A program made the position numbers and the translations under genes. Positions 21,679-62,359 of a stretch of DNA of 64,000 nucleotides are shown here, in pieces. The stretch is from an uncultured virus (IMG/VR IMGVR_UViG_3300026408_000032) (taxonomy: Duplodnaviria; Heunggongvirae; Uroviricota; Caudoviricetes), in IMG/VR virus record IMGVR_UViG_3300026408_000032; one strand, 5' to 3'. Position 1 is the stretch's first letter; every line of letters starts with the position of its first letter. The notes under the pieces were generated by a model. It was not told the DNA's origin and did no database searches. It saw nothing but the letters and a program-made list of their open reading frames with translations.

Positions 21679-22470
21679 GTGACGAAACTCTTCGATATGA
21701 CGGACATGAAATTCGAGCGTCTAACAGTTCTTTCGCGCGCGGAAACCTCTAAGGCCGGTCAAACGCGATGGAACTGCCGTTGTGACTGCGGCAGTGAACT
21801 CGTTGTGCAAGCCGCTGCTTTGAAGTGTGGGCACACACGGTCTTGCGGCTGTCTCAAGATCGAGCAAACCATCGCGATGAGCACCAAACACGGTCATGCG
21901 ACAAAGGGAATTTCACGAACCTACAGAACATGGGCCGCAATGATCTCTCGCTGTTCAGACCAAAACGCTAATGGCTTCAGGCATTATGGCGGAAGAGGCA
22001 TTTCGGTTTGCCAGGAATGGCGAGAGTTTAGCAACTTCGTTCGCGACATGGGCGAGAAGCCGCATGGAATGTCACTCGACCGCATCGATGTGAACGGGAA
22101 CTATGAGCCGGGCAATTGCAGATGGGCGACACTCAATCAGCAGGCTCGCAACCGCCGAGACAGCCGGTGTCTGACATACCGCGGCGAAACAAAGAGCGTG
22201 CACGACTGGGCTGAAGAGAACGGTCTTCCTGTAAGAGCCCTTGTCCATCGTCTAAATGCGGGATGGAGCACGGAAGACGCGCTTTCAAAACCATCTGACG
22301 GGGCAGCGAACAAGCCGAACCTGCGCTTTATTGAACACAACGGCGAGTGTCTTTCTATTTCCGAATGGTCACGACGCTCTGGAGTTAAGCTGACAACGCT
22401 TTTTTACCGATTGAACGCAGGATGGCCGATGGAGCGCATCCTGTCAGAAGGTGTGTCAAGCCGCCTGTAG
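21679..22470 (+). CDS. Free-standing HNH-type homing endonuclease
   Basis: WNCRCDCG, YGGRGI.VC..W, SLDRIDVNGNYEPGNCRWA; duplicated C-terminal DNA-binding module. Confidence 0.88.
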   Translation: MTKLFDMTDMKFERLTVLSRAETSKAGQTRWNCRCDCGSELVVQAAALKCGHTRSCGCLKIEQTIAMSTKHGHATKGISRTYRTWAAMISRCSDQNANGFRHYGGRGISVCQEWREFSNFVRDMGEKPHGMSLDRIDVNGNYEPGNCRWATLNQQARNRRDSRCLTYRGETKSVHDWAEENGLPVRALVHRLNAGWSTEDALSKPSDGAANKPNLRFIEHNGECLSISEWSRRSGVKLTTLFYRLNAGWPMERILSEGVSSRL

Positions 22471-25936: not shown

Positions 25937-28033
25937 TTAGAACCCCGAGGCTTGCTGCGGCGGCGGATAAACCTGCCGGATGTTCGGCTGCTGCTGTGGG
26001 GCCTGTTGCGGTTGCACCGGCTGAGCCTGTGGCTGCGGCTGGCTTTGCGGAATGGACTGCGGCGGAAGCAACGTCGGCGTTTGAATGACGGTCGATGCTG
26101 CGGTCTGATCCGCCTTCGCATAGTTCAATGCCGCTTGCGCTTTGAGATTGTCGATCTCGGCGTTCGTCTTTTCGAGATCCTTGAGAACCTTTTCGAGCTG
26201 CGCCTGTGTGGCGGCCTGCTTCGCAGGATCGGGCTTCTGATCGCCCATCTTCTTGAGGATGCCCGCCTTGTTGTGCAGGCCGGACATCTCGATCCACTGT
26301 TCCGGCGTGAACTGGACCGCGCCTGTTTTGGCGAGATCAACCATCATACTGAACTGTTCCTGCTGGATATTTGCAGTGTCAGGAACGTCGTCAAGGATGA
26401 TGTCCATGCTCATATCAGCCGGGACATGCTCGGTGCGGACGGGTTGCCCAAGCTGCTGAGCGAACATCGGGTCCTGCTGCGCCCGAAGCCTCATTTGCTG
26501 CTGCGCTTGTTCCGGGTCGATGCCCTTGTCCGTGGCTTGGCTCAACAGGTCTTCCGCCAACGTCACAGGACGGTTGAGACCGACGAAACGCAGGTTGTTC
26601 TCGTCGTCCGTGACCCTGATCCACGTCTCGGCCGTCCAATACTGGCGGATCATGGCCCAGATCAGCTTATAAACACGGTGTTTGAAGTGCCGCTGGCGGT
26701 CCATCAGGATCGCGAGTTCGATCTGCCCGCCCTGTTGCGAGGCGAGAACGGCACGGCCGGAAGCGGATTGGTCCTGCTTGCCTGCGAGTGCCGCGTTCGG
26801 CCCCATCAGGTCGATTTCCGACTTCGCTTCGTTGGCAAGTTCGACGTTGCCAGCAAGCTGCGCCGTCGTATCAATCACCCCGAACGCATCCGGGACATTG
26901 CCCAGGTTGTTGATTTCGACATGGCCGTCGGCTTTGGATAGCTCGGCCTTCATATGATCGACGTCATCGATCGCGCCTTTGACGCTCCGGGTCTGCCGGT
27001 TCATCAACAGGTGCAAGGCTTTCGATCGGCGCTTGTTGATCTCGTCCTGAGGTCCGATCAACTGCCGGACAAAGCCATAGCGGTTGTTTTCGCGGTCAAC
27101 GAACCCCGACTGCAGGATCAACGGGCAAAGAGAAACCCCGTCATCATCCCGATAGGGGACTGCGCCTTCCTGAATCACGCCGCCCTTGGTGAAAATCGAC
27201 CAGTGCCAGTCCTTCTGGGCGCCAAAGCTGTAGTACATCTGCACAATGCGAACGCGCTTGCGCTTTCCACCTGAGGCCCATGCTTTCCATGCAGGGCGGT
27301 CGGAATAGGTCTTATAGGCGTCCTCGGAGATCGTGTGCGCGATGATCTCCTGCGCATCGGGGTACATTGCCAAGGCTTCGTCTTCGTCCATCCAGACGAC
27401 GAGGCCCTTGTAGCGTGCATCCTCAAAATCATGTTCGCGGGAATGGGGATCGTAGAACGTGCGGTCCCAGTGCGCCTGGCCGACGCTGATATCCCACTTG
27501 TTCGGGTCTTTTGAGTTGCGCTCGACCTTGGGCTCAACGCCGCCGTAGCCCTCGACCAGCATGTTGTCCCAGACCTGGGAGAACCGTTGCGTGATGTCGG
27601 CCTTGTCACCGACGAAGCGGAGAGCATCCGAGCAGGCATCAGCGGCGGCTTCATCGTTGGGCGTGCGGGGAAAGCCTCGCGGCTGCGTTCTCTGTGTCGC
27701 CTCATACCCCATCAAGTATTGGTGCTTGGACTTGATGCGGTTGATGATGATGGCTGGCTGGCCGCGCTTCTCCAGGGCTTTGAGTTCGGCGGCGGTGAAC
27801 TGCTTGTTGTCGACGTAATCCCGGTCCCGTTCCGATAGGGAACGGCTATCGATCGTCGCTTCCTCGGAGTCTTCAAACCACTGGACGAGCGTGGAGTGCG
27901 CAATCGGGGCCTGGTAGGCTGGTTCTTCCGGCTCGATGGTCTGACCGCCAGCGTAATCTCCCGCTGCCATCTGGGCAAGCGTACCCGGCTGCTGCCCCTG
28001 TGCGGGCAGCATCGCATTCGGATCAATGGCCAT
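25937..28033 (-). CDS. Portal protein (P22-type)
   Basis: RGQP..INRI, YG.VR.L.GPQ.E.NKR.S, SG.A...Q..G motifs; follows terL. Confidence 0.92.
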   Translation of the reverse strand: MAIDPNAMLPAQGQQPGTLAQMAAGDYAGGQTIEPEEPAYQAPIAHSTLVQWFEDSEEATIDSRSLSERDRDYVDNKQFTAAELKALEKRGQPAIIINRIKSKHQYLMGYEATQRTQPRGFPRTPNDEAAADACSDALRFVGDKADITQRFSQVWDNMLVEGYGGVEPKVERNSKDPNKWDISVGQAHWDRTFYDPHSREHDFEDARYKGLVVWMDEDEALAMYPDAQEIIAHTISEDAYKTYSDRPAWKAWASGGKRKRVRIVQMYYSFGAQKDWHWSIFTKGGVIQEGAVPYRDDDGVSLCPLILQSGFVDRENNRYGFVRQLIGPQDEINKRRSKALHLLMNRQTRSVKGAIDDVDHMKAELSKADGHVEINNLGNVPDAFGVIDTTAQLAGNVELANEAKSEIDLMGPNAALAGKQDQSASGRAVLASQQGGQIELAILMDRQRHFKHRVYKLIWAMIRQYWTAETWIRVTDDENNLRFVGLNRPVTLAEDLLSQATDKGIDPEQAQQQMRLRAQQDPMFAQQLGQPVRTEHVPADMSMDIILDDVPDTANIQQEQFSMMVDLAKTGAVQFTPEQWIEMSGLHNKAGILKKMGDQKPDPAKQAATQAQLEKVLKDLEKTNAEIDNLKAQAALNYAKADQTAASTVIQTPTLLPPQSIPQSQPQPQAQPVQPQQAPQQQPNIRQVYPPPQQASGF

Positions 28034-28040
28034 TGAGGGG

Positions 28041-29471
28041 TTACCCGACTTTCCAGTTGGAAGTTGGTCCGTCACGATCGGCAAAGGCTTTGGCCCAGCC
28101 GTCCGTCTTTACCTTCGTGACTTGCTTGGGTGGACTGTAATGGATGATCGATGGGAACAGATTAGTCAGCGCCCACACAAGCGCATCCACACGGTCGCCG
28201 GTCGTGGTCTTGCCTCGATCGCCGGGGTTGATACCAAACGGAGTGAAAACCACCATTTGATCCTCAAGCGCCGGGAATGAGCCGACGTGAGAAACCCTGC
28301 CTTGCGCATAGAGCGCCGCAATCGGTTCGGCGCGTGTCACCTTACCACGCGAGGCATGAACTGTTAGAACCGGCGCATTCGGGCGAACGGACCGAATGAC
28401 GGCCTCCACCATGTCGCCGCCCTGGTTGCGTTCGGCCACGATCGCGTCGCCGTCAAATTCGTCATAGGCTGCGATTGCGCGCGTTGCCCAGCCATGCGGG
28501 TCCATCGCACACGTAACATCAGCCAGAACATATCCGCGCCCGTCAACGCCAATGCCGGCAACCACGATGCCTGTTTCGGCGCCGCCGTCACTGTCGCCTG
28601 ATCCGCCCCACGACGCCGCTGGGTCAATGGCGATGATGACCCGTTGCATATCGGGCAGGTGCCCGCCCTTGGCGATGCGCCTGGCGTCAATGTCGGCCCG
28701 CTTCCAGAGCGCGTCTGGCGCGTCATCCAGAATTTCCGCATCGATCTCTTGCCGACCCAGCCTTGTGCCGGCATAGCGGGCCTCGATCTTGCTGATGAAT
28801 GAGGGTGCGAGATTGGCCCTGTTCTCGTTCATCGACCCGCGTGTCACGACCGTCCGCGGATCGGCCACTATGTCCTTTAATGCCTTTATTGGCCGCGGCG
28901 TGGTCGTCACGATCTGCCGGGGATCATCCCCTAAGCGAAGACCGAACTGAAGATTGTCCCACGTCTCCTGAGCATAGGCCCATTTTGCGAGCTCATCGGA
29001 CCACGCCGCGTCGTGTTGCGGGCCTCGGAGCTGATCCGGCTCAACCGCATTGTAAAGCGTTGCAACGGCCCCGTTGGGCCATGTCACACGCCGCTTGGAC
29101 GGCTCATAATGCGGGCGAAAGTCTTTTGGGTGGACCGATAACAGGCCGCTGTCGCCTTCCACCATAACATCACGACAGTCAGCCGCCGTCTCGCCAACGA
29201 GGGCAATGCGCTTTATGGTTCCGGGCGCCATTGGCGTTGCCCCGCAGACCAGTGACCTGATCCACTCAGCACCACACCGGGTCTTGCCGAAACCACGGCC
29301 GGCAAGGATCAGCCACGTCGCCCAATCACCCGCCGGAGCAAACTGTTTCGGACGCCCCCAGAATGACCAGTTGAATAGGAGTTCTTCTCTTTCGTCGGCT
29401 GGCATCGCTTCGATGATCGCTCTGCGTTCCATCTCCGGAAGCAAAGCGAACCGCTCAGCCCGCGACAGCAA
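28041..29471 (-). CDS. terL: Terminase large subunit
   Basis: AGRGFGKT Walker A, LRGPQ..WSDE Walker B, IAIDPA, DRVDA. Confidence 0.96.
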   Translation of the reverse strand: MLSRAERFALLPEMERRAIIEAMPADEREELLFNWSFWGRPKQFAPAGDWATWLILAGRGFGKTRCGAEWIRSLVCGATPMAPGTIKRIALVGETAADCRDVMVEGDSGLLSVHPKDFRPHYEPSKRRVTWPNGAVATLYNAVEPDQLRGPQHDAAWSDELAKWAYAQETWDNLQFGLRLGDDPRQIVTTTPRPIKALKDIVADPRTVVTRGSMNENRANLAPSFISKIEARYAGTRLGRQEIDAEILDDAPDALWKRADIDARRIAKGGHLPDMQRVIIAIDPAASWGGSGDSDGGAETGIVVAGIGVDGRGYVLADVTCAMDPHGWATRAIAAYDEFDGDAIVAERNQGGDMVEAVIRSVRPNAPVLTVHASRGKVTRAEPIAALYAQGRVSHVGSFPALEDQMVVFTPFGINPGDRGKTTTGDRVDALVWALTNLFPSIIHYSPPKQVTKVKTDGWAKAFADRDGPTSNWKVG

Positions 29472-29480
29472 TTGGCGCTC

Positions 29481-30104
29481 CTAGTCCTTGCGTGCCGCAA
29501 GACGGTCAAGGCGGTTAAACAATTCTTCGGTTGCGGTCGCCACACGTTGCGCGGCGTCATCCGGTCCATCGTCCGGCTTATCGAGGCTGAACGCCTGGCG
29601 CTCTAGCGGAATGAGAGTTCTCAACGCCTGAGCCAACGTCGATGCGGTCTGTGCCCTACTAGGAAGCGCAACAGCCGCCAGCATCCGTGCCCGCCGCTTG
29701 CCGCCCTTGTCGTCCGCCGTTTCGGCTTCAATATCTTCTTCGATCTCGCCACGGTGCTCAATGACCGAATGAAGCTCGTCGATCAGCTTCGTAACGGCCT
29801 TGCGGTTCGTGCCAATATCTTGGCGATGTTCGCGAACCAGCGCGACGCCACGAGCAGCGGCCATCTCAATGGTTGCAGACCCCCGCGCTTCCTGCAACCC
29901 TTCTGCAACCAGCCGAGCTGCTACCTCAGTCCGAACCTTTTCGGACAGGTCACGATTCCAGCCGTTCTTCTTGGCTTTCTTCTGAATGGCGGCGCGGCTG
30001 ATGTTGTATTGGCGCGCAATCTGCGCCTCGGACAATTGGCCGGCGCGATATTCCTTCTCGATCGCCTCCCAATCGGTCGGAGGCTTTGCGGGCTTGTCCG
30101 TCAC
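29481..30104 (-). CDS. terS: Terminase small subunit
   Basis: DWEAIE.EYRAG.LS..IA HTH, W.RDL; upstream of terL. Confidence 0.85.
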   Translation of the reverse strand: MTDKPAKPPTDWEAIEKEYRAGQLSEAQIARQYNISRAAIQKKAKKNGWNRDLSEKVRTEVAARLVAEGLQEARGSATIEMAAARGVALVREHRQDIGTNRKAVTKLIDELHSVIEHRGEIEEDIEAETADDKGGKRRARMLAAVALPSRAQTASTLAQALRTLIPLERQAFSLDKPDDGPDDAAQRVATATEELFNRLDRLAARKD

Positions 30105-30195
30105 GTCCTCACATCCACGGCCAGTAGATCAGCGCCCAACACGTTGCCCCTAGTAGAAAACCAGCCCAGAACCATAGGTCGGTGAGTTCCACAGA

Positions 30196-30885
30196 CTACC
30201 CTATGAGCGATAGCTGTTCAGCCTTTGGTGCAGGAGCTTGAACGAACATATCGGGCTGTGCGTAGGCTTGCTCGATGCGTCGGCACGCTATGTCGAAATA
30301 GCGAGGGTCAAGCTCGATCCCGATGAACTTCCTGCCAAGTTTCACGCAGGCAACGCCAGTTGTGCCAGAGCCCATGAAGGGGTCGAGAATGGTATGAGCT
30401 GTCAATGGAAGTTGCTCTATGCACCACTGCATCACTTCAATGGGCTTTTGCGTGGGGTGCACCCGTCTGTCGTCTCGCTCAGACGCCTTCAACATGCCGT
30501 TCCAAAGATGCCGCTTGAGACGCGCCGAGCCGCCTCGCTTACACCAAGCCAATTCACAGTCGCTATTATTATTTGAACTCACTCCGTCGCGCTTATCCCA
30601 TATAAGCCATGCGGCCGATGGCGGGAGGCTGCTAGCGTAGTGGTTTGCGCCCCAAAGAATGACATCGGTGGCGCCTAGAAATGGCGTTGGGTCGAAGGGC
30701 TCGCAGTCACCTTCGATGACGGGATAGTCACCCCGCTCATACATTCCTCGACCCGATGGTGATTTATATCCAATGCCGTAGGGCGGATCCGCGACAATGG
30801 CGTCCACTTTCGGCAAAGAAGCCAGAACCTCGCGACAGTCTCCCTGGTAGAGTTGGCAATCGCCTATCTCTACCTTCGTGACCAT
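30196..30885 (-). CDS. Orphan N6-A/N4-C DNA methyltransferase (beta class)
   Basis: DPPY, HPTQKP, DPFMGSGTTG. Confidence 0.93.
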   Translation of the reverse strand: MVTKVEIGDCQLYQGDCREVLASLPKVDAIVADPPYGIGYKSPSGRGMYERGDYPVIEGDCEPFDPTPFLGATDVILWGANHYASSLPPSAAWLIWDKRDGVSSNNNSDCELAWCKRGGSARLKRHLWNGMLKASERDDRRVHPTQKPIEVMQWCIEQLPLTAHTILDPFMGSGTTGVACVKLGRKFIGIELDPRYFDIACRRIEQAYAQPDMFVQAPAPKAEQLSLIG

Positions 30886-31031
30886 TGCTTTTCGGATTGT
30901 CCCTAGTTGCCTATGCTCATGTCGTGCTCCATCCTCCGCTGATCTGGCCTCGGTCCAGTTCCATGCCGTTCTGATGTGGTTGGCGTGCAGGTCTGACGGG
31001 CCGTCTTGCGAGCGGGGACGGATTGCCCAAC

Positions 31032-31064
31032 AAAAAACCCGCTCGGAGGTATCTCCAGCGGGTT
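31032..31064 (-). terminator. Terminator at the head of the late operon (tR'-like)
   Basis: CCCGCT-GGAG/CTCC-G-AGCGGG plus TTTTTT on the minus strand. Confidence 0.6.
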
Positions 31065-31291
31065 CGGGCAATTCGTGCAGTGTGACTTGTGTCTAACCGA
31101 TTTAAGCCGGGAGCGCTAGTGCAAAAGCGCAACAATCGGAATGTTTCAGCAAGATTTTTTGAAATAATCGGAAAGTCGGTGATTTCCTCTGACCTCAGAA
31201 TCCTCTGATTTGCACCTTATGTCAAAGGCTTAAGGGTGAGTTCCTGATGATTGCTGGGGATTGCGGAATCTTGAGGTCGCTTGATATTGCG

Positions 31292-31636
31292 TTAGCCCAT
31301 GGCGAGCCGAATAAGCGCTACCATGGCTTCGCCCTCATCCTTCGCACTTTCCGTCCGCGCGATTACTCCGAATTGCGTTCGTCTCTGAAGCACCAAAACG
31401 CCGATGTCATGGGCGATCAGCCGAATAAATTCAGGAGGCATATCCCGGATCTGTAACGTTACTTCCAGCGATTCCTCCGTTTCATCGAATGGGCCGACAA
31501 CACGAAGCCCAGATCCCTCCAAATTATCGAGGATGTGCTGCAAAAGATTGCGGGCGGTCTGACGCTGTTCGCGCTTCAGTTTGTTTCGCTCTTTGTCTTC
31601 GACCTCGATGGCTTTCTGCGCCTGCACCAAATTCAT
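31292..31636 (-). CDS. Hypothetical protein
   Basis: GGGGAG SD; 114 aa. Confidence 0.6.
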   Translation of the reverse strand: MNLVQAQKAIEVEDKERNKLKREQRQTARNLLQHILDNLEGSGLRVVGPFDETEESLEVTLQIRDMPPEFIRLIAHDIGVLVLQRRTQFGVIARTESAKDEGEAMVALIRLAMG

Positions 31637-31726
31637 TTCCGCTTTCTCCCCTTCTCGCCCATTGAATTTATTTAGGTTGTAACCCTCATGCCCATTTCCG
31701 TATGGCGAGTTACAACGCCAATGACT

Positions 31727-31900
31727 TCAACCACCTGTATTGAAATCAGCGCATCGTTCCCGTCTTACCCACGCGCGGACGGCTTCAATGCGCTCAGGGG
31801 TTATGCCGGAGCCATCGCCTAAGCATTTATGGACGCTCTCCAACATATCGAGGATTTCGCTCACGGCCTCATGTGCGGACGGTATCTGTTTGCCCTTCAT
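31727..31900 (-). CDS. Small hypothetical protein (57 aa)
   Basis: ATGA overlap with the RHH gene; GGAGG SD. Confidence 0.5.
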   Translation of the reverse strand: MKGKQIPSAHEAVSEILDMLESVHKCLGDGSGITPERIEAVRAWVRRERCADFNTGG

Positions 31901-32055
31901 TTGCGCTTGGCCTCCGCTTTGTCGTGTGCGCGCTCGATGAGCCGCCTAACCATCTCAGACCGGGACGGGATGTCTTTCTCCAGCCGCCGCAAATCGTCGA
32001 GCTGAGCCACGATCTCGTCGGCAATCCGCATCTGCAAAAGCGTGTTCTGGGTCAT
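31897..32055 (-). CDS. Ribbon-helix-helix (CopG/Arc-like) regulator, 52 aa
   Basis: MTQNTLLQMRIADEIVAQLDDLRR..PSRSEMVRRLIE; not in the supplied ORF track. Confidence 0.8.
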   Translation of the reverse strand: MTQNTLLQMRIADEIVAQLDDLRRLEKDIPSRSEMVRRLIERAHDKAEAKRK

Positions 32056-32125
32056 GTTGTAGGCATAACCCTGATGTTACTCAGTGTCAACACATCAAAT
32101 CTTTGTGATTGACGTAGTGATTGTA

Positions 32126-32154
32126 TTGACAAACAACACATGCGGGTTTATATT
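32126..32154 (+). promoter_or_regulatory. sigma70 promoter of the moron, divergent from the RHH gene
   Basis: TTGACA-N17-TATATT; CAACACAT repeated at 32088 and 32134. Confidence 0.75.
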
Positions 32155-32289
32155 GGGAATAGTTGAGCAGGCCCCAAGCCAATACGCAGCGACCCGAAAC
32201 AAGCCCACAGCGCCACAGGGATGGCCAGAAGGCAAGGCGGGAAACCGGAGTGGCTCGACAGAGCGAACAAGATGCGCGGCTGGAACTAA

Positions 32290-32344
32290 GGTCGAAACCG
32301 GCGCGAATGCCGGTCCTACCGTCAAGCGGTAGCTGATGATGACC
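32290..32344 (+). ncRNA. Type II hammerhead ribozyme
   Basis: GGTC-GAAA-CCGGC(gcgaat)GCCGG-TC^-CTACCG(tcaag)CGGTAG-CTGATGA-t-GACC. Confidence 0.85.
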
Positions 32345-32427
32345 CGTCAGAAACAAGCGAGGCCCGCAACTGTGCAACCAGCGGCGAGCCTCTTGTCTCA
32401 ACCCTGACTGAACCAGGAGATGAAACC

Positions 32428-33453
32428 ATGACAGAACCTACCACACTTGAACGACGCACCGCAATCGGGGTGGGAATACTTATCCTCGCCGCTGCGACTG
32501 ATGTCGCAGTTCGTAAAGCAGGCGGATATGGCAGCGATTATTCCCGCCTGCTTGTCGCTATGTCCTGCGGTGTCGTGACCGGCGCGTACCTTCTTGGACG
32601 TGCTTGGTCTATGTCACGTCCTATCGCAATCGTAATCCTGTGTACGCTGTGCTGCGGAGAAGGCTTCAATCTCTGGCAAACAGTTGAACGTGTGATGACC
32701 GCTCGCGAAGCAGGACGCGCACCTGCCCGTGCCGCCCTGAAACAGCACGAGGAAGCCGAAACTGCTCTCAAGGCGGCAGAGGGTTCCGAAGTCACGTCTG
32801 CCCGCCTCTCGCTCGCTCTGCAAGCCGCAGCGAAGGCTAAGGCGGCATACGAACTTGAACTCCGGACTGGCGGTCGCTGCCGGACCATCTGCAACGGTTT
32901 GAAAGCCGATGCAGAGAAAGCCGGAAAGGAAGTCACCACTGCGCTCTCCGAGGCCGAAGGCATGAAGCTCACAGCGATCAAGACGGCGAAAGCTGATCTT
33001 GCGGCGCATCCGCTTCCGGCATCGGGAACGGCATCGTCGGATGAAACAGGCATTCCGGTTTGGGTGCTCGATCTCATTTCGGCGGTGTTGCTGTCACTCG
33101 GAGCAAACGGCTTGGCGGCCTCGTTAATTGCTTTCGGAGCGCATTCAACTATATCAAAATCTGATATAGTTGCTCAGTACAACGACAACGAACAGACCGA
33201 CTTTGCCGCTTCTGAGTTTGATGCGGTCAAAATCCGCTCGATGGTCGGGGGTGGATTTCCGGGAAAGCCTACTCCGCCTAACAAACCTCGGAAACGTGGT
33301 CGGAAAGCGGATTCCCGGATTGTCGATTTCTCGGAAAAATTCCGGGAAAGGCACGGCAGAGCCCCATCTGGCGGGGAGATAAAGTCGGAATTCCCAGAAT
33401 TGCCAGTGTCTACGGCTTACGACTATTCGAACCGCGCACGCATTACGGGATAA
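32428..33453 (+). CDS. Multi-TM coiled-coil protein with basic, HTH-like C-terminus (moron)
   Basis: Three N-terminal TMs, CxxxC in the coiled coil, a further TM; AGGAG SD. Confidence 0.8.
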   Translation: MTEPTTLERRTAIGVGILILAAATDVAVRKAGGYGSDYSRLLVAMSCGVVTGAYLLGRAWSMSRPIAIVILCTLCCGEGFNLWQTVERVMTAREAGRAPARAALKQHEEAETALKAAEGSEVTSARLSLALQAAAKAKAAYELELRTGGRCRTICNGLKADAEKAGKEVTTALSEAEGMKLTAIKTAKADLAAHPLPASGTASSDETGIPVWVLDLISAVLLSLGANGLAASLIAFGAHSTISKSDIVAQYNDNEQTDFAASEFDAVKIRSMVGGGFPGKPTPPNKPRKRGRKADSRIVDFSEKFRERHGRAPSGGEIKSEFPELPVSTAYDYSNRARITG

Positions 33454-33470
33454 CGATTGTCGGAAACTTT

Positions 33471-33499
33471 AGAGCCCGGTCAGCAATGGCCGGGCTTTT
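33471..33499 (+). terminator. Intrinsic terminator
   Basis: AGCCCGGTCA-GCAA-TGGCCGGGCT-TTT. Confidence 0.8.
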
Positions 33500-33503
33500 C
33501 CGT

Positions 33504-34145
33504 TTATGGCCTCGCGCGGCCGCCTTCACGCGCCTTAGTGACCTCGATTGAGCGCTCTAGCGTCCATCCCTGTGTAACATAACGCTGGTAGACCGCTTTC
33601 CGACTTACACCCTCATCCGCCACAACGTCACAAAACAGTCGGTCCTCTCCTTTGTATCTCACCAAGAGGACATTTCTCTTGTTTCGAGACTGCGTGGCTC
33701 TCGTTTCCCACCGGCAATTCTCGGGATAATATCCTTTATCGTTATCGAGACGCTCCAGCGTCATGCCCTTTGGGCAATCGCCCATGTCCTCGAAAAAATT
33801 TGCGAAATTTTCCCATCGCGTGCACACGGAGATGCCGCGAGCGCCATAATTCTTGTAACTTTTATTATTGGGATTCTCGCATCTTTGGCGCATCGTTTTC
33901 CAGACGAAATATTCTTTGCGACGACTCATGCCGTGAGTTGTGCTTCTCTCTACAATTTTCTCCCGGTTATAACAGCCGCATGAGATTGTTCCTCCGTAGA
34001 GAAGTTCTCTATGGCTGACGCGAACCTCTGCCCCGCAAGAACACCTACAATTCCAATAAGGATTCCGACGTGGTCCGACATGATGAATATCAATTGCTGT
34101 AAGGCGTCCGAATACGCCTCCAGACAAGTCCCTTCTCTTCCTCAT
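33504..34145 (-). CDS. HNH-type homing endonuclease
   Basis: WNCRCSCG, YGARGISVC, TLERLDNDKGYYPENCRW. Confidence 0.88.
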   Translation of the reverse strand: MRKRRDLSGGVFGRLTAIDIHHVGPRRNPYWNCRCSCGAEVRVSHRELLYGGTISCGCYNREKIVERSTTHGMSRRKEYFVWKTMRQRCENPNNKSYKNYGARGISVCTRWENFANFFEDMGDCPKGMTLERLDNDKGYYPENCRWETRATQSRNKRNVLLVRYKGEDRLFCDVVADEGVSRKAVYQRYVTQGWTLERSIEVTKAREGGRARP

Positions 34146-34660
34146 GGGCGGCTCAATCCTCGCGTTTTAGCTTTCGTTATTATAGTCTTTTTCTTGGATT
34201 TTTTCCACCTAATACGTTGGCTTGCATTGTGTGATTTTCGATATCGCACGATCTTCCCATCCGCTCCGATACGCGCGCCACCCCATGCCTTGCCCGAGAT
34301 GAAGGTGCTCATAGCCGACCTTCTCGGACTTCGCGGATAACTTCACGAACAGCATCGACTCCGGCGCCAAGCATGATGAACCCAACCCAAAACCCGGCGC
34401 ACCAGTAGACAAGCTGCCAAGATGGCTCGAATTCGTTCAGCAAAAATAGGGCTGAAACAAATGCGATATCGAAAAAGAAGTCGCCTACAGCGATAATCCA
34501 ATCTCCGGGTGTTTTTAGCTTTCTTCTCATCGTGCCCTCTCTATCGCAACGCGCGCCGGAACGTGTTCGGAAACATACGTTCCAATTTCAAGCACAGCCC
34601 ATAGGAACCAAAACCCTACAACGAACATGAAAGACCAGAAGGCGAGTTCACGTTTCCATG

Positions 34661-34996
34661 TCATGATGTGAATCCCATTGGCTTGCCGTCGTACATAGGA
34701 TGCGCTCCGTAAACGGCGCGAAAGTTCTCAATATCGCGCTCGATAGTTTCGCGATCTTCAACCTGCGACGTTGCATAGAAGTCGAGTTCGTATTGGCTAA
34801 TTTGGTGAAACTTCCGCAACCTCTGGAACATCGGAAGCAGCGTCTCGTGCCATCTCCAAGCGGCCAGTTTGCAAGCGATCATTCCTTCCGTTACCTCGCG
34901 CAGCTTGACGCGAAGTTCCGATGCTTCCATTTCCGCGAAACCGGCAGCAGCCAAGGCATCGTCAAAAAACGCCTCCGGCACAAATTGTTCACTCAT
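34661..34996 (-). CDS. Hypothetical protein
   Basis: Coupled ORF in the leftward operon. Confidence 0.6.
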   Translation of the reverse strand: MSEQFVPEAFFDDALAAAGFAEMEASELRVKLREVTEGMIACKLAAWRWHETLLPMFQRLRKFHQISQYELDFYATSQVEDRETIERDIENFRAVYGAHPMYDGKPMGFTS

Positions 34997-35192
34997 GCCG
35001 ATCTCCGATGCGCAGATGCTTCGATGACATGGAACCCTGCTTCTCTCGCGACTTCCATTTCCTCAGCGTCGTCAATACGTGGTGTAATTCTCCCTGCTCT
35101 AATTCCTTCAAGCCTTAGTGTTCGAATGGCTAGCTTGTAACACCCGTAAGCATTGTCAGCGGCGTCATAGCCGTCGTTCTCGTTCGTAATCA

Positions 35193-35663
35193 TTAGACCC
35201 CCGTTATCCGTGCAAAGACTTCCTGAAATTTCACTTGCTCCAATTCGACAGCATCGGCTTCCGTCAAAAGCGGAATGCGTTCTGATGCTGCGAGCGAAAC
35301 AACTTCGAGCGCTGCGGCTTGTCCGGATTTTTCCCACCAAGATCCTCTGCGCCACGATGGACGCCATACCGTTTCCAGTTCCGACCTCAACCTGAGCAGC
35401 GGCCCTTCCCCTCGGATGATGTGCTGAAAGTGGACGGTGAGCTTTTCGCTCCGCCAGCGTTGGGCCGTTTCGATTGCGCCCGCGAAGGATTTCCGGGACG
35501 AAACACCAAGCGAGATTTCACCTGCCAACGGTCCCGTCTCATCCCCGATGCAGTAAAGGACTTTCAAATCCAACTCACGTTCGACCAGCTTGAACAGCGC
35601 GGTATCTTGCGCCGTCTCTTTCCGGTCGAAGTAGACCGTCTGCATTTTGGAGGCGAGACTCAA
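35193..35663 (-). CDS. Hypothetical protein
   Basis: Coupled to the upstream gene. Confidence 0.6.
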   Translation of the reverse strand: MSLASKMQTVYFDRKETAQDTALFKLVERELDLKVLYCIGDETGPLAGEISLGVSSRKSFAGAIETAQRWRSEKLTVHFQHIIRGEGPLLRLRSELETVWRPSWRRGSWWEKSGQAAALEVVSLAASERIPLLTEADAVELEQVKFQEVFARITGV

Positions 35664-36337
35664 ACCGTTACCCCTTCCCGGCTGAGTTTTTGAATGCGGT
35701 ACAGGTCCGCGTATCGCGCGGTTCCGTTAGCGATGCGGAATAATTCGCGCGAAATTTGATAAATACGCTTTTCGATCTGGTCTGAGTTCAGGCCAAATTT
35801 CATTCCGATGAGCCTCGGCCCCCACCCTTGCGCGTGAAGCGTTAGGATGCGCTGATCGGCAACCTGCGGCGACTTACTGCTGCCAGTCCTGTATTGCTCA
35901 ACGCATCGCTCGAACTCATCGATGTTTTCAGGGAGCAGCGCCAGCTTAGCAAACCAAGCTCCGGCGATCAGAGAGTCGCTTATCTCTTTGCGTGTGGGGT
36001 CGTCTCTCTCTCGCCTATCATCGTCATCGCGCGGCGGGATTTCGCCCTTAGCATCCACGATGTCCATGAACGGCTCGATGGGAATATCCCGCCGGTAGAT
36101 ACGAACTCCCGGCTTGAAATCCTTCTTGGGGTCGTTGCCTTCGCGCGCGAGCAGGTCCGACCATTCAACCAGAGTTGCCGGCCAAGCGGCTTTCGTTCCT
36201 GAAGCGAGAAACCGTCTCTCCCGATCCGGCATCGCTTTGAGCGTTCGGATTGCGGTCAAGGTCCGTTCGAAGACTTCCGCTTCCGAGATGTAGGGTGCTC
36301 TAGGTGGAAGGGTTGGGACGTAGGTGCGGAGTTTCAC
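35660..36337 (-). CDS. Putative late regulator/antiterminator (Q-like position)
   Basis: A..TL.AMP..WP motif, C-terminal HTH-like segment; position. Confidence 0.5.
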   Translation of the reverse strand: MKLRTYVPTLPPRAPYISEAEVFERTLTAIRTLKAMPDRERRFLASGTKAAWPATLVEWSDLLAREGNDPKKDFKPGVRIYRRDIPIEPFMDIVDAKGEIPPRDDDDRRERDDPTRKEISDSLIAGAWFAKLALLPENIDEFERCVEQYRTGSSKSPQVADQRILTLHAQGWGPRLIGMKFGLNSDQIEKRIYQISRELFRIANGTARYADLYRIQKLSREGVTV

Positions 36338-36876
36338 TCTGCGGCCTCTCTGACAGGGACGCGCACAAGATGGGGAAATTCGCGCCTAGCGATTGCGAGA
36401 AACTTGTGTTCGCTTTCCTTGCAGGTCACGCGGCGGCGGTGCTCATAAGCATCCTCATCCGGCTTGCGTTCTTCCGTGAGGCGTATGGGCGGCACGTAGA
36501 GCGTCGCTGGCGCGGGTTCGGGCTCTGCCGGTAGGGGTGCCGCTACCGGCTCGAAATAGACGAACTGTGCCTCACCTGGCTGCCATTCCAGCGCCATCTG
36601 GCGGGCAGCGTCCAGCTTCTCGACAAATTCAGGGTCGGTCGCCATCAGCATACCGACGCGGCGCAATCCACTCATCACGGTCGTATGATCGCGATCGCCA
36701 AGGATGCGGCCGAGTTCCGGGTAGCTCGTATCTGGTCGCAACTCACGGACAAGATGCCAAGCCGCAAATCGGGCGTGGCAATATTTGTTGTGCTGGCGTT
36801 TTGATTCCATGTCGCGATACGAAACGTCGAACGCTTTGGCGACACAGTTGATGATCGTGCGGCGCGGAATTTTCAT
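36334..36876 (-). CDS. DnaA domain IV-like HTH protein
   Basis: AR..A.HL.R..SYPELGR..RDHTTV. Confidence 0.88.
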   Translation of the reverse strand: MKIPRRTIINCVAKAFDVSYRDMESKRQHNKYCHARFAAWHLVRELRPDTSYPELGRILGDRDHTTVMSGLRRVGMLMATDPEFVEKLDAARQMALEWQPGEAQFVYFEPVAAPLPAEPEPAPATLYVPPIRLTEERKPDEDAYEHRRRVTCKESEHKFLAIARREFPHLVRVPVREAAE

Positions 36877-36886
36877 GTTGTCCCCC

Positions 36887-37360
36887 TCAGAACGGAATCT
36901 CGTCGTCTAATGCTTTGTCGAAGTTGCCTTTCCCACGCGCCGGTGCAGGCTTGCTGTTTCCCGCTCCAAATCCGCCGTCAGTGTTGAGATCGTCTTCGCG
37001 GTCCTTTGAGGGACCATCCAACATCGTCAGCGTGCCGTTGAAGGCTTGCAGGACAACTTCCGTAGAATACTTCTCGGCGCCGGATTGATCGGTCCACTTC
37101 CGCGTTTGAAGCGAACCTTCAATGTAGAGCTTGGCGCCCTTCTTGACGTACTGCTCGATGACCTTGACCAATCCTTCCTGGAACACGACGACGCGATGCC
37201 ATTCCGTCTTTTCCTTGCGTTCACCTGTTTGCTTGTCGCGCCATGTGTCGCTGGTAGCGATCGATAGGTTTGCGATTTTGCGACCGTCATTCGTTGTGCG
37301 GATTTCCGGGTCTTTCCCGCAATTTCCAACCAAAATGACCTTATTGACTGAGCCTGCCAT
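36887..37360 (-). CDS. ssb: Single-stranded DNA-binding protein
   Basis: [27 protein letters not shown] tail. Confidence 0.97.
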
Positions 37361-37369
37361 TGACGTTCC

Positions 37370-38827
37370 CTATTGTTTGACGACCGAGAAACCCGCGCGC
37401 TCCGGCGCGAATTTCATCTTCACGGTGCCGGGCTTGCCCATCACCTTCCAACGCTTCGACTTGCAGATTTTCACGAAGGTCAACTGATCGTCGTCGGGAT
37501 CGCGGTGAATGATGATCCCGTGATCGGCCTTGTTGTTCCAAGCGTTCGAGCCGGACACGTCGTAAAGGTCCAGTTCCTCGATCGTCTTGCCTTTGACCGC
37601 CTTCGACGGATGCGTGACGATGATGATCGCGATCTGAAACCGCCGCGCCATGCGCTTCAATTGCTTCAGGGCATCGTTCGTATATTTCGTCTCGTTCTCG
37701 TTGACTTTCCAAAGATGCTCGACTTCGTTCCACGGGTCGATGAGCACCCATTTGCAGCCATGCCGAAGCGCTGCTTCCTCGATTGCGTTCTTGAGCCAAT
37801 TAAGATCGAAACTCACTTCGTCGTCGGCGTCTTCGTTCGGGGATATCGAGTAGAACATCTTCTCGGCCCATTCTTCCGGGCCCATCGGATAAATGTTTGC
37901 GCGCTCGTCTTTGGCCCATGCCTCCGCGTAGGCGAGCACATCGGTCTGGTTACGGTCTGGGTCGTCTTCGAATTGCAGGATCGCGCCTTTCAGCCGGTGC
38001 AACCGCGCAAGGTTCATCAGCCACGACAGAACCCATTGCGACTTGCCAGCGTTCGGCGTGCCGGTGACGACAACCAATTCCGGCGGAACGAGAATGAGAT
38101 GGTCGTTCAAGGCTTCCCATCCACTGTCATAGCGGCGAAGCGCGCCACGATTGGGGATGTCCATCAGAGGAACTAGCCGGTTCGGAACCATCGGCTTCGC
38201 GTTGTCGATCATGTGCATGAGCACGTCCGGGCCATCCGGCCCGCACTTCTGCAAAACGTCGTTGGCGTCTTTGCAGTCGGTCGGATATTCGACGACGTAG
38301 CAGCGATTGCGACCAAGTCGGATCGCCAGCTCATCGCGCAGAACGCCGCCAGCGACATCGCCATCGACGGCTAGAATGATCTTGCTGAATTTCTTTATCG
38401 TCGGCTTGAGGTCCGTACCCTCCCAGATATACGCAAACTGTTTGTCATTGGTCGGATCGATGTCGCCTTCGCCGCCCTTTCCGGCTGATCCATTAGGGAC
38501 GGACACGACGCGGGTCGCTCCGGCTGCTAACCAGGACGCGGCGTCGATCTCCCCTTCGCAGATGATCAGCGGAACGTCCGGCGAGCACGGCTCGCTCAGA
38601 CAATCCTCGTTGAACAAGAACAGATCGGCTCCCGCTGGCTCGATCCAAAACCTTTTGTCCATCGTGCGCATCTTGCGGAACATGCACACATCGTTCCGGC
38701 GGAACTCGAACGCCAGTTCCTTGCCCTTCGATACGAACCCGATCTCCGCTGCGAGTTCGCTCGGAATTTTTCTCACGTCCTCCAGCCATTCCGCGTGCTC
38801 GTGGCTGAGTTCTAGTCTTTGCAACAT
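37370..38827 (-). CDS. TOPRIM primase-SF4 helicase (T7 gp4/Twinkle-like) without Zn-binding domain
   Basis: IICEGEIDA, VSVPNG, D.D..G, KDAND, TGTPNAGKS, LIDPWN, HPSK; GAGGGG SD before ATG 38827. Confidence 0.9.
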   Translation of the reverse strand: MLQRLELSHEHAEWLEDVRKIPSELAAEIGFVSKGKELAFEFRRNDVCMFRKMRTMDKRFWIEPAGADLFLFNEDCLSEPCSPDVPLIICEGEIDAASWLAAGATRVVSVPNGSAGKGGEGDIDPTNDKQFAYIWEGTDLKPTIKKFSKIILAVDGDVAGGVLRDELAIRLGRNRCYVVEYPTDCKDANDVLQKCGPDGPDVLMHMIDNAKPMVPNRLVPLMDIPNRGALRRYDSGWEALNDHLILVPPELVVVTGTPNAGKSQWVLSWLMNLARLHRLKGAILQFEDDPDRNQTDVLAYAEAWAKDERANIYPMGPEEWAEKMFYSISPNEDADDEVSFDLNWLKNAIEEAALRHGCKWVLIDPWNEVEHLWKVNENETKYTNDALKQLKRMARRFQIAIIIVTHPSKAVKGKTIEELDLYDVSGSNAWNNKADHGIIIHRDPDDDQLTFVKICKSKRWKVMGKPGTVKMKFAPERAGFSVVKQ

Positions 38828-53750: not shown

Positions 53751-54152
53751 ATGGCCTTGTTTCGTACATTCGAGGAAGCGGTGGAGGCGATCTATCCGCC
53801 TGACCGCAGACCGCGTGTGCGTACCCTGCGTGAAAGAATGGCGGCCGTGCAATGCGTCGTCTACGACGGCCGTGAGTGCTATACCACCGACGCTCTGATC
53901 GAAAAATTCAAGGCTCAGCTATGCAAGGCTACCGCTCCAAGCTCAAACCAGTTAAGCGGCGCAAGAAAACGAAGGAAGGGGCCGAAACGTATTGGGTCGC
54001 GCGTGGCTTCATTCCAGTTCGAAGACGAGACGGCACTTTCGCCCGAAGACGAATTGAACGCAGCCTTGGAGGCCACACGGCTAAGGAAAGGCAAGCCGAA
54101 GTCGATAAGCTCAACCAAGCCTTTGAAGATGCTGCCCAGAACATCAGTCTGA
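53751..54152 (+). CDS. Putative excisionase, overlapping the integrase 5' end
   Basis: Short HTH-like N-terminus directly upstream of int. Confidence 0.5.
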   Translation: MALFRTFEEAVEAIYPPDRRPRVRTLRERMAAVQCVVYDGRECYTTDALIEKFKAQLCKATAPSSNQLSGARKRRKGPKRIGSRVASFQFEDETALSPEDELNAALEATRLRKGKPKSISSTKPLKMLPRTSV

Positions 54153-55096
54153 CGTTTGCGAAGGCGTACAACAATTATATCGGCGTCGGTAAAGAAGTGC
54201 CGATGCTAGGCGAACAGATCCTTCACGAACTCGGCGTCCGCCAGTGCATTGAGATTGACGATAGCGTAATGCTTGCGGCGAAGGCTGTTATTTTCAAAGC
54301 CGACGCTAAGCCTTCCTATATCAACCGCCACCTCTACACGCCTGTTCATGCCATCCTGAAGATGGCGCTCAAGGAAGCGACGCCTCAGTTGACGCGGCCG
54401 GAGGGTCACAAGGACTCGCCAGAAATTCAAATCCCGGATCAGAACTGGTTCCGCGTTGTCGGGCAGCAAATGGGGATCGACACCCGCGCCCTGGTTTACT
54501 TCCTGACGATCCACGGCCGCCGTCTCGGGGATGCCCTCGGACGCATCCCAGACAACTTCGACCCGACGGCCGGGACGCTAATGATCGGCAAGACCAAGAC
54601 GGGCAAGCCGCTATTCATCGATCTGCATCCGACCGTGGTCGAGGCGTTCAAGCTGATGCCGGACTGGCAGAAGCGCCGCTGGCTGTTCAGAGACGGACCC
54701 AACTCCGGCAACAACGTCCGGAAGGACATTCTCGTCGCGGTGCTAAAGGCCAACGGCTTCGACCCAAAAGACTTCCAGCGCAAGGTGAAGGGGCGGCCGC
54801 CGCAGATCGATGAGGCGAAGGCCCGCGACTACATCCGCGAGCACGGCTCGGTGCCCTACTTCGGAACACATGCCATCGGGCGGCATTCAGCGGCGACGCG
54901 AGCTTTGCTCGCCGGGTACAGCCTGCTCCACGTGCAGAAGATGTACGGCTGGGACACCATCGAAATGCTCTCGCGCCGCTATGGTCACTTGGCGAAGGCT
55001 GAGACGAATGCGGCAGTGCACAAGGTTGCAGATGCGTTCATTGAACAAATTGAAAACAAATCAAAGAAGGAAAGCGGCGAACGCGATGGATATTAG
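53921..55096 (+). CDS. int: Tyrosine integrase
   Basis: G.R.GD (R), KTKTG (K), HAIGRH, GW, RRY.H; near attR. Confidence 0.92.
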   Translation: MQGYRSKLKPVKRRKKTKEGAETYWVARGFIPVRRRDGTFARRRIERSLGGHTAKERQAEVDKLNQAFEDAAQNISLTFAKAYNNYIGVGKEVPMLGEQILHELGVRQCIEIDDSVMLAAKAVIFKADAKPSYINRHLYTPVHAILKMALKEATPQLTRPEGHKDSPEIQIPDQNWFRVVGQQMGIDTRALVYFLTIHGRRLGDALGRIPDNFDPTAGTLMIGKTKTGKPLFIDLHPTVVEAFKLMPDWQKRRWLFRDGPNSGNNVRKDILVAVLKANGFDPKDFQRKVKGRPPQIDEAKARDYIREHGSVPYFGTHAIGRHSAATRALLAGYSLLHVQKMYGWDTIEMLSRRYGHLAKAETNAAVHKVADAFIEQIENKSKKESGERDGY

Positions 55097-61801: not shown

Positions 61802-62359
61802 ATGAAACAGGCACGAACACTCACCGACGCACGGCACGCGCAGGCGCTCAAAGCACTAGACCATCCACGAGACCGGCTCATGTACCTACTCAGTGCACGA
61901 GCTGGCCTTCGAGCTGTCGAGATTGCAGGACTCAAGTGGGACCGCATCGACTTCGACGAGAGAGTGCTTCGTTTGAAGACCACGAAGGGCAGGAAGCCAC
62001 GAGCTGTTCCGATTGCCTCGGAGGTCTTCGACGCTCTGAAGCAATACGAAAAGCACTCTGGTCGCCATAGGTCCGGTCTCGTCTTCGTGAACACGCACAG
62101 CCGCCCAGGGCAACCACTGACGCCCAACAGTATCGCTGCATGGTTCCGCGACCTCTACACGCGACGTCTCGGCTGGGACGGCTATTCGAGTCACTCAGGA
62201 CGGCGCACATTCTGCACGAAGGTCGCTCGCAAGATCACTGAAGCTGGAGGGTCGCTCAAAGACGTCCAGGCACTCATGGGCCACGAGAGCCTTCAGACGA
62301 CCTCGCGCTACATCGACACCGATCCCGAAGCACAACGCAGAGTGGTCGATTTGATTTAA
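61802..62359 (+). CDS. Tyrosine recombinase, catalytic domain only
   Basis: AGLRA.E, TKG, HSGRRT, MGH, RY. Confidence 0.93.
   Translation: MKQARTLTDARHAQALKALDHPRDRLMYLLSARAGLRAVEIAGLKWDRIDFDERVLRLKTTKGRKPRAVPIASEVFDALKQYEKHSGRHRSGLVFVNTHSRPGQPLTPNSIAAWFRDLYTRRLGWDGYSSHSGRRTFCTKVARKITEAGGSLKDVQALMGHESLQTTSRYIDTDPEAQRRVVDLI

Follow-up and report, generated by a model that had tools for sequence, protein, structure and literature searches.

The motif at positions 32290–32344 is a real type II hammerhead ribozyme, carried by a soil phage in front of the gene for a likely membrane protein. By its sequence it is a member of a Bcep176-like phage subgroup without pseudoknot, which in the strict sense lies outside the Rfam model. 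The window, which is the whole stretch analysed, comprises bases 1–64000 of a 67,045-nt virus record. The kind of hammerhead is itself known (Perreault 2011); neither the U-specific insertion nor the covarying tail that pairs with the catalytic core was found in print. The coordinates of all features are collected in Table 1.

The core C3-U4-G5-A6-N7-G8-A9 and G12-A13-A14-A15.1 is complete, with one U added after A9. The three helices are present with the core-adjacent pairs 1.1–2.1, 10.1–11.1 and 15.1–16.1, as seen in the sequence, the fold and the family covariation. Loops close stems I and III and stem II is open, which is the type II topology as defined in PMC3088659. The core, the three helices and the open stem II thus support the type II assignment of the sequence-only reading, and every hammerhead element that it had listed was found at the coordinates it gave. 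When 32290–32344 is folded alone, all three stems form with P 0.83–1.0. A type II descriptor gives one match in the 67-kb genome. When the 64-kb window was simulated 150 times with a first-order Markov model and searched on both strands, a single match arose by chance. An Infernal comparison with a hammerhead model, suggested earlier as a check, gave a divided answer: RF02276 aligns to the motif (24.7 bits, E 0.018), but the gathering score of 37 is not reached. The window-wide Rfam scan at the gathering threshold did not report the motif. The motif without its tail would very probably cleave. Two ORFs of 57 aa and 82 aa that span the ribozyme found no support, and the 57-aa one has no Pfam match.

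Table 1. Features in and around the hammerhead motif (window positions).
Feature	Position	Strand	Remarks
Divergent ribbon-helix-helix gene, 52 aa	31897..32055	-	likely regulator of the promoter pair
Sigma70-like promoter, TTGACA-17-TATATT	32126..32154	+	11/12 consensus
U-poor rod-like leader RNA candidate, 5' part	32162..32252	+	3' closing strand missing in this copy
Gene remnant, last 12 codons and TAA	32251..32289	+	TAA adjoins the ribozyme
A 5' of stem II (L2.4 position)	32289	+	predicted partner of U1.7; A in 224/229 copies
Type II hammerhead ribozyme	32290..32344	+	predicted cut between 32315 and 32316; Rfam, fold, descriptor, family covariation
Stem II, GGTC / GACC	32290..32293 / 32341..32344		end open
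Core GAAA	32294..32297
Stem III, CCGGC / GCCGG	32298..32302 / 32309..32313		loop 6 nt
Cleavage triplet GTC (GUC)	32313..32315		NUH type
Stem I, CTACCG / CGGTAG	32316..32321 / 32327..32332		loop TCAAG
Loop I, UNNNG type, first base U1.7	32322..32326	+	U at 1.7 in 223/229 copies
Core CTGATGA	32333..32339
Inserted U between A9 and G10.1	32340	+	U in 83/84 structured matches
Anti-core tail	32345..32350	+	complementary to core 32333-32338; excludes stem II; fold and family covariation
Conserved hairpin ahead of the RBS	32359..32392	+	z -3.1 for 32352-32432; HMM matches upstream of many homolog genes
Small hairpin over Shine-Dalgarno AGGAG (32415-32419)	32398..32423	+	fold
341-aa predicted membrane protein, Hyphomicrobium-phage family	32428..33453	+	51 homologs
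Terminator-like 12-bp hairpin and short U tract	33471..33498	+	-21.4 kcal/mol; no call by consensus terminator scan

Related copies were collected from IMG/VR with patterns in which stem II (GGUC/GACC), the core and UC were the only fixed parts. Stem II was pre-set by the search pattern, and its presence in the copies is no independent evidence. The exact form occurs in 17 stretches and a form with any inserted base in 115. For the form without insertion, 124 stretches were fetched; a scan of 12 of 64 parts puts their total at an estimated 650 or so. Raw pattern matches without stems (21 of 105 and 5 of 132) were dropped, and L158, a C insertion with no real stems, was removed from a set of 230. 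Structure parsing left 229 unique copies, 87 with and 142 without the insertion; three of them come from homolog loci. Of the 229 copies, 209 have a stem I region of 17 nt, and among these 209 the six pairs of the stem are intact in 208–209. Neither the U at 1.7 nor the A before stem II, both nearly invariant (Table 1), was fixed by the search patterns. Covariation was scored in 43 chosen copies, namely the window, L029, L018 and 40 out of the 56 insertion copies whose stem III is short. All 602 of 602 cells are paired, in copies for which the parser had already required some pairing, and both sides change in 9 of 14 pairs. Slid controls for this set pair at 48% or less.

A pseudoknot of at least 4 bp between loop I and the 3' tail was found in 11 of 209 copies against 11.8 expected, which is no excess, and in this copy loop I has no partner of at least 5 nt outside the core. 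By analogy, the conserved U1.7 and A(L2.4) may dock through a Hoogsteen contact. Such a contact of U1.7 with the last base of loop II is attributed to O'Rourke et al. in PMC11875169, a source that also describes U1.7 as not essential in a trans-acting minimal hammerhead.

The copies tend to lie between genes. In 145 of 226 copies, an ORF of at least 30 aa has its stop codon no more than 6 nt upstream, compared with 5.7% of control positions, and 201 of 226 have a Shine–Dalgarno sequence and a start codon on the downstream side (a count without a control set). At least two copies are present in 38 of 183 loci, mostly spaced by 200–600 nt. Here, the TAA of a gene remnant (32287–32289) adjoins the ribozyme and the downstream gene starts at 32428, a ribozyme-to-start distance of 83 nt versus a subgroup median of about 19 nt. 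The subgroup members likely cut messenger RNAs between genes. Since the tested Bcep176 ribozyme has the exact subgroup layout, the subgroup is already in print. Phage operons with four or five tandem hammerheads, each flanking one small gene, were observed in L011 (359–2560), L071, L074, L192 and L218; the L011 operon carries Rfam-type copies alongside an insertion-type copy. A recurring short motif forms the RBS-to-start context of small ORFs in the L018, L361, L377 and L381 phages, and the same motif is embedded in hammerhead stem III of L024, L036, L364 and L351.

The inserted base is U in 83 of the 84 structured matches (of 105 raw). Among the 21 stemless matches it is U in 8, C in 8 and A in 5. 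A single-base insertion at this site, between A9 and G10.1, is also present in the (+) hammerhead of CChMVd (De la Pena and Flores 2001, cited in PMC3705267 and PMC1636495), which agrees with the earlier statement that active natural hammerheads tolerate an extra base at this site. According to these two sources, U at this position speeds trans cleavage 3–4 fold, A slightly lowers the rate, and C or G is harmful. The natural CChMVd insertion is described there as an A that is mildly slowing and is kept for the viroid fold, whereas the window carries U, the engineered faster variant. Taken with this published rate effect, the U bias in the phage copies looks like selection for activity. The insertion is labile, being absent in the near-identical L029; both forms coexist in 10 loci, and the phage copies with the inserted U fall into about 46 sequence clusters. 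At E≤1, Rfam reported none of 15 insertion copies in 12 loci, while four other L011 hammerheads were found. The natural U-insertion form was not found in the published literature searched; Perreault's type II alignment (Dataset S1) was outside this search and may contain it.

The sequence-only reading overlooked a second feature, the anti-core tail directly 3' of stem II. In the computed ensemble, P(stem II) drops from 0.99 to 0.02 once the tail is present in the transcript. For the window and four intact relatives, adding 15 nt of tail lowers it from 0.84–0.99 to ≤0.03. ViennaRNA gives the core–tail hairpin an advantage of about 2–3 kcal/mol over stem II before cleavage, a value for secondary structure only. 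The sequence UCAG is located 1–3 nt 3' of stem II in 26 of 229 copies, compared with 1.1 expected from downstream positions. The base before UCAG covaries with N7 (C7:G 6, C7:A 0, U7:A 16, U7:G 3, A7:U 1), with a Fisher p of 4.7e-4 over 22 clusters at 75% identity, kinship being only roughly controlled. In all four membrane-gene loci with an intact-core ribozyme (L024, L029, L036 and L364), a tail is present and prevails in the computed ensemble. The two loci with a damaged ribozyme, L018 and L379, have no tail. The L018 ribozyme (2583–2636) has probably decayed, with C3 changed to A. The one in L379 (1327–1373) has probably decayed as well, its stem I being cut to 9 nt; it follows a gene pair that resembles HicA/HicB by eye.

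On the modeled energies, the tail could suppress cutting instead of following it. The ribozyme would then be an attenuated or regulated switch, in which the tail competes with stem II before cleavage and the cut occurs only if the transcript is paused at 32344–32350 or freed of a terminating ribosome in time. Besides the ensemble values for the window and its four intact relatives and the covariation with N7, this gate is favored by the stop codon that adjoins the 5' strand of stem II in most subgroup members, and by the attenuation of some natural hammerheads by alternative structures (a title cited in PMC1636495). However, copies with a tail are not enriched for adjacent stop codons (16 of 26 versus 129 of 200 others), and the folding energies, being secondary-structure only, leave out tertiary contacts. 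The upstream ORF in this copy is moreover a remnant without a conserved ATG or a spaced Shine–Dalgarno sequence, and ribosome coupling is therefore unlikely here. We regard the gate as rather unlikely. A broader version, in which the covarying anti-core helix of the subgroup is selected as an on/off gate and the gated cut in Hyphomicrobium phages releases an uncatalogued U-poor noncoding RNA and sets the fate of the membrane-protein mRNA, appears unlikely to us.

The transcript start near 32161, which had been proposed from the sequence, is a fair inference from the promoter at 32126–32154 and is consistent with its near-consensus boxes. The divergent 52-aa gene matches Pfam RHH_1 (E 3e-4, 20.9 bits, cut-off 20.5) and a PHROG repressor; L018 likewise has a divergent ribbon-helix-helix gene. 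Homologs of the leader that follows the promoter are found in L024 (3424–3548), L036 (815–924) and L353 (1485–1596) as a 110–130-nt element directly after the promoter, and the element is complete in L024 and L036. With 5 U in 91 nt, the leader falls in the lowest 0.13% of 91-nt windows. Its short central helices show compensatory changes in 7 of 23 pairs in four sequences; compared with shuffles, the stretch 32161–32290 has no extra fold stability (z +0.44). In the gene remnant that ends at the ribozyme, 10 of 12 residues are identical to the C-terminus of a 55-aa protein of L042 (tblastn E 6e-7 over the collected loci). This C-terminus is conserved in P0052–P0054, and the 55-aa gene of L042 stands first after its promoter. 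From these matches, the upstream piece is likely a deletion or recombination chimera of about 90 nt of leader and a gene C-terminus, which would explain why the ribozyme adjoins a TAA like its relatives. The 155-nt structured RNA that the sequence-only reading had expected as 5' product is not borne out as such: the stretch folds like its shuffles, and the released 155-nt piece would be a deletion chimera of about 90 nt of leader and 12 codons, and not the intact leader RNA of L024 and L036. A translated 22-aa upstream ORF (32221–32289) was rejected, because the ATG shows no conservation and was created by a compensatory change within the leader hairpin; what is present is only a remnant.

The upstream module varies among relatives. 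It consists of small ORFs in L018 and L029, of the leader RNA in L024 and L036, and of a different U-poor leader in L364. Searches for further leader copies with the 5' 16-mer (54 matches) and with a core pattern (4 matches) returned unrelated sequence only. A leader pattern matched none of 401 genomes, and a covariance model matched one of 141, which is the copy already known. Nothing credible came from Rfam for the leader, and aligning it with other U-poor leaders revealed no shared fold. Those other leaders are in L364, L361, L377 and L381. The U-poor leaders as a whole, with the element of the window, L024, L036 and L353 included, are uncatalogued and purine-rich with 5–11% U and comprise at least two sequence types; they directly follow promoters divergent from small regulator genes in Hyphomicrobium-type prophages and have no Rfam match. 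We take a put-like antiterminator or a protein sponge as possible leads for them. In L353, a structured-looking noncoding stretch at about 1600–1780, also with no Rfam match, occupies the slot of the hammerhead in its relatives.

While the upstream module varies, the hairpin and RBS on the downstream side are found ahead of most close homologs of the 341-aa gene. In L020 and L026, which have no ribozyme, the transcript would begin at the conserved hairpin, right after the promoter. Hairpin-and-RBS modules of the 32359–32423 type were observed in L018–L021, L023–L027, L029, L032, L036 and L044, also before neighbouring small ORFs; an operon may contain two of them, as in L024, and several loci have another small conserved hairpin in front of the module. 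The predicted 3' cleavage product folds better than shuffles (z -4.0). Opening the RBS costs 6.6 kcal/mol in the full-length RNA versus 8.9 kcal/mol in the product, and the cut is thus not predicted to open the RBS. Activation of translation by cleavage was rejected; cutting does not reduce the cost of opening the RBS for the window, L024 or L036, and reduces it slightly in L029 and L018 only.

The 341-aa protein has hydrophobic helices at residues ~10–28, 41–59 and 65–83 near the N-terminus and a central one at 216–234, as judged by hydropathy. It also has a long coiled coil with a CxxxC motif (C151 and C155 are conserved) and a variable small helical domain at the C-terminus. The AF2 model has a pLDDT of 74. 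The protein has no Pfam or PHROG family, Foldseek gave no match in the PDB at E≤1e-3, and its Atlas neighbours are unnamed. The unit has its own promoter and lies on the + strand between minus-strand replication/HNH genes and methylase/terminase genes. The earlier description of the gene as a moron fits this layout, with its own promoter and its insertion among phage genes; the G+C content is unexceptional (57.1% versus 56.4%). The separate sigma70-like promoter is on the strand opposite to that of the phage genes. The further claim, that the cut would leave a 5'-OH mRNA for the 341-aa protein, is also supported.

The window encodes a terminase, a portal, a major head protein, an endolysin, a primase-helicase, an S24 repressor and integrases. 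With the repressor and integrases, this gene set suggests a temperate phage, lysogeny being read from gene content only. The 341-aa gene is on the + strand and is surrounded by minus-strand genes. Its named homologs are from Hyphomicrobium, and its profile is matched in 29 of 64 genomes of one such genus; because of these homologs and matches, the host is likely a Hyphomicrobium relative. A full-length relative was not found by BLASTN against isolate phages. Five tRNA genes are located at the left end of the stretch (47–120 and 1516–1910), and two tyrosine integrase genes at 53876–55096 and 61802–62359. The ORFs at 21679–22470 and 33504–34145 are similar and of endonuclease type, the latter being HNH on a scan.

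All or part of the stretch is present in 16 RNA-labelled runs. Contigs from four soil metatranscriptomes were mapped to 28000–38000. X1 and X4 cover everything, which may also reflect DNA or lytic read-through. The X6/X7 contigs, of low depth, leave a gap at about 32117–32420, and the next contigs start at 32421 and 32431, away from the cut site; contigs cannot show RNA ends.

Among 45 non-redundant membrane-gene loci (54 examined), a ribozyme of this type lies no more than 1.5 kb upstream of the gene in only six, and in two of these it is damaged. The ribozyme is thus dispensable for the 341-aa gene. Its absence from the other 39 loci, the lesions in L018 (C3 to A) and L379 (short stem I) and the chimeric leader are what one would expect if it were an unselected leftover of a longer operon after a deletion, mostly silenced by the tail. 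We nevertheless find this very unlikely; no lesion is present in this copy, which retains the insertion, the tail and the U1.7/A geometry, and the differences from L029 preserve pairing. It is more improbable still that the main job of the ribozyme is to form the 3' end of a small U-poor noncoding RNA from this promoter, with the mRNA 5' end as a by-product, which is close to the idea of the sequence-only reading. In its favor, the leader runs directly into the ribozyme in L024 and L036, and also in L364, where the inner sequence differs, and it has compensatory changes in its central helices. Against it, the leader of the window lacks the closing strand, is fused to a gene remnant and shows no fold stability beyond that of shuffles; in L353 no hammerhead could be recognised next to the leader, the L018 and L029 ribozymes follow a protein gene, and most subgroup copies come after stop codons.

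The model that we prefer, to which we give about even chances as a whole, has the cut after C32315 detach the upstream module, after which the tail caps the core and the mRNA is left with a 5'-OH end and hairpins. Given the promoter consensus, core, helices and family geometry observed, a transcript from this promoter is likely cut after C32315 by the intact ribozyme. Stems I and II would dock through U32322 and A32289 without a pseudoknot, and the extra U would be neutral or mildly activating. Once cleaved, the 3' product would have nothing but the 4-bp stem II to keep it attached, and the tail at 32345–32350 would therefore displace stem II; in doing so it would free the 5' piece and block re-ligation. 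The membrane-protein mRNA would then begin with a 5'-OH and stacked hairpins flush with the end. Hairpins at the 5' terminus and a 5'-OH slow decay that depends on the 5' end. Decay and translation of the mRNA may in this way become independent of the swappable upstream module, as with a natural RiboJ insulator. A 5'-OH can also trigger decay, as the cut of the glmS ribozyme promotes it (PMC6765202), and the effect of the 5'-OH end on the mRNA could thus have either sign.

Among the closest known systems is the tested Bcep176 hammerhead (Perreault 2011, PMC3088659; Naghdi 2020, PMC7151607; NC_007497.1, L391). Like the window copy, it is of type II, with an A before a GGUC stem II, a GUC triplet, a 6-bp stem I and a UNNNG loop, and it too lies just behind a stop codon, its first base being 2 nt from that of the preceding gene. 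Unlike the window copy, it has an A6C core, which is described as Mn-preferring and slow in Mg, and no inserted U (PMC7151607); in the window, the core follows the consensus, the U is added, and the 6-nt anti-core tail is a separate element. A consensus-core revertant of the Bcep176 ribozyme cleaved during transcription, as reported by Naghdi 2020 (PMC7151607). The bacterial and prophage type II hammerheads of RF02276 share with the window the permutation, the core and the intergenic position in phages, often in tandem. Most of the type II hammerheads described in Perreault 2011 (PMC3088659) are pseudoknotted, whereas the window and its subgroup are without the pseudoknot between loop I and tail. 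That study reports cleavage of prophage hammerheads in tandem, both in vitro and in E. coli, and proposes that polycistronic mRNA is cut between phage genes. Type II hammerheads near phage-like genes in D. vulgaris are reported to be active in vivo (PMC8782182). RiboJ (PMC8942793) resembles the window in having a hammerhead and a downstream hairpin before the RBS and in removing variable upstream sequence; RiboJ is synthetic, and the likeness is one of layout only. By analogy with these systems, the window hammerhead belongs with the known gene-punctuating phage hammerheads and would work like them. The purpose of bacterial and phage self-cleaving ribozymes was still called 'largely elusive' in a 2019 review (PMC6765202). 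The earlier remark that their roles are mostly unknown is fair in this sense, but it passes over the role in phage intergenic processing that was proposed and tested in 2011 (PMC3088659).

The subgroup is large, with 115 insertion stretches and an estimated ~650 without the insertion, and it is mostly missed by Rfam. It offers natural comparison pairs in which the extra U is present or absent (window versus L029), or the anti-core tail is present or absent. If the tail neither gates nor caps the cut, the window ribozyme would be an unremarkable member of a kind that has been known since 2011. If the tail does either, phage hammerheads would exceed transcript punctuation and provide a ready natural insulator or switch. 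Were the reading with a gated helix true, this would be a naturally switchable bacterial hammerhead and not a constitutive cutter.
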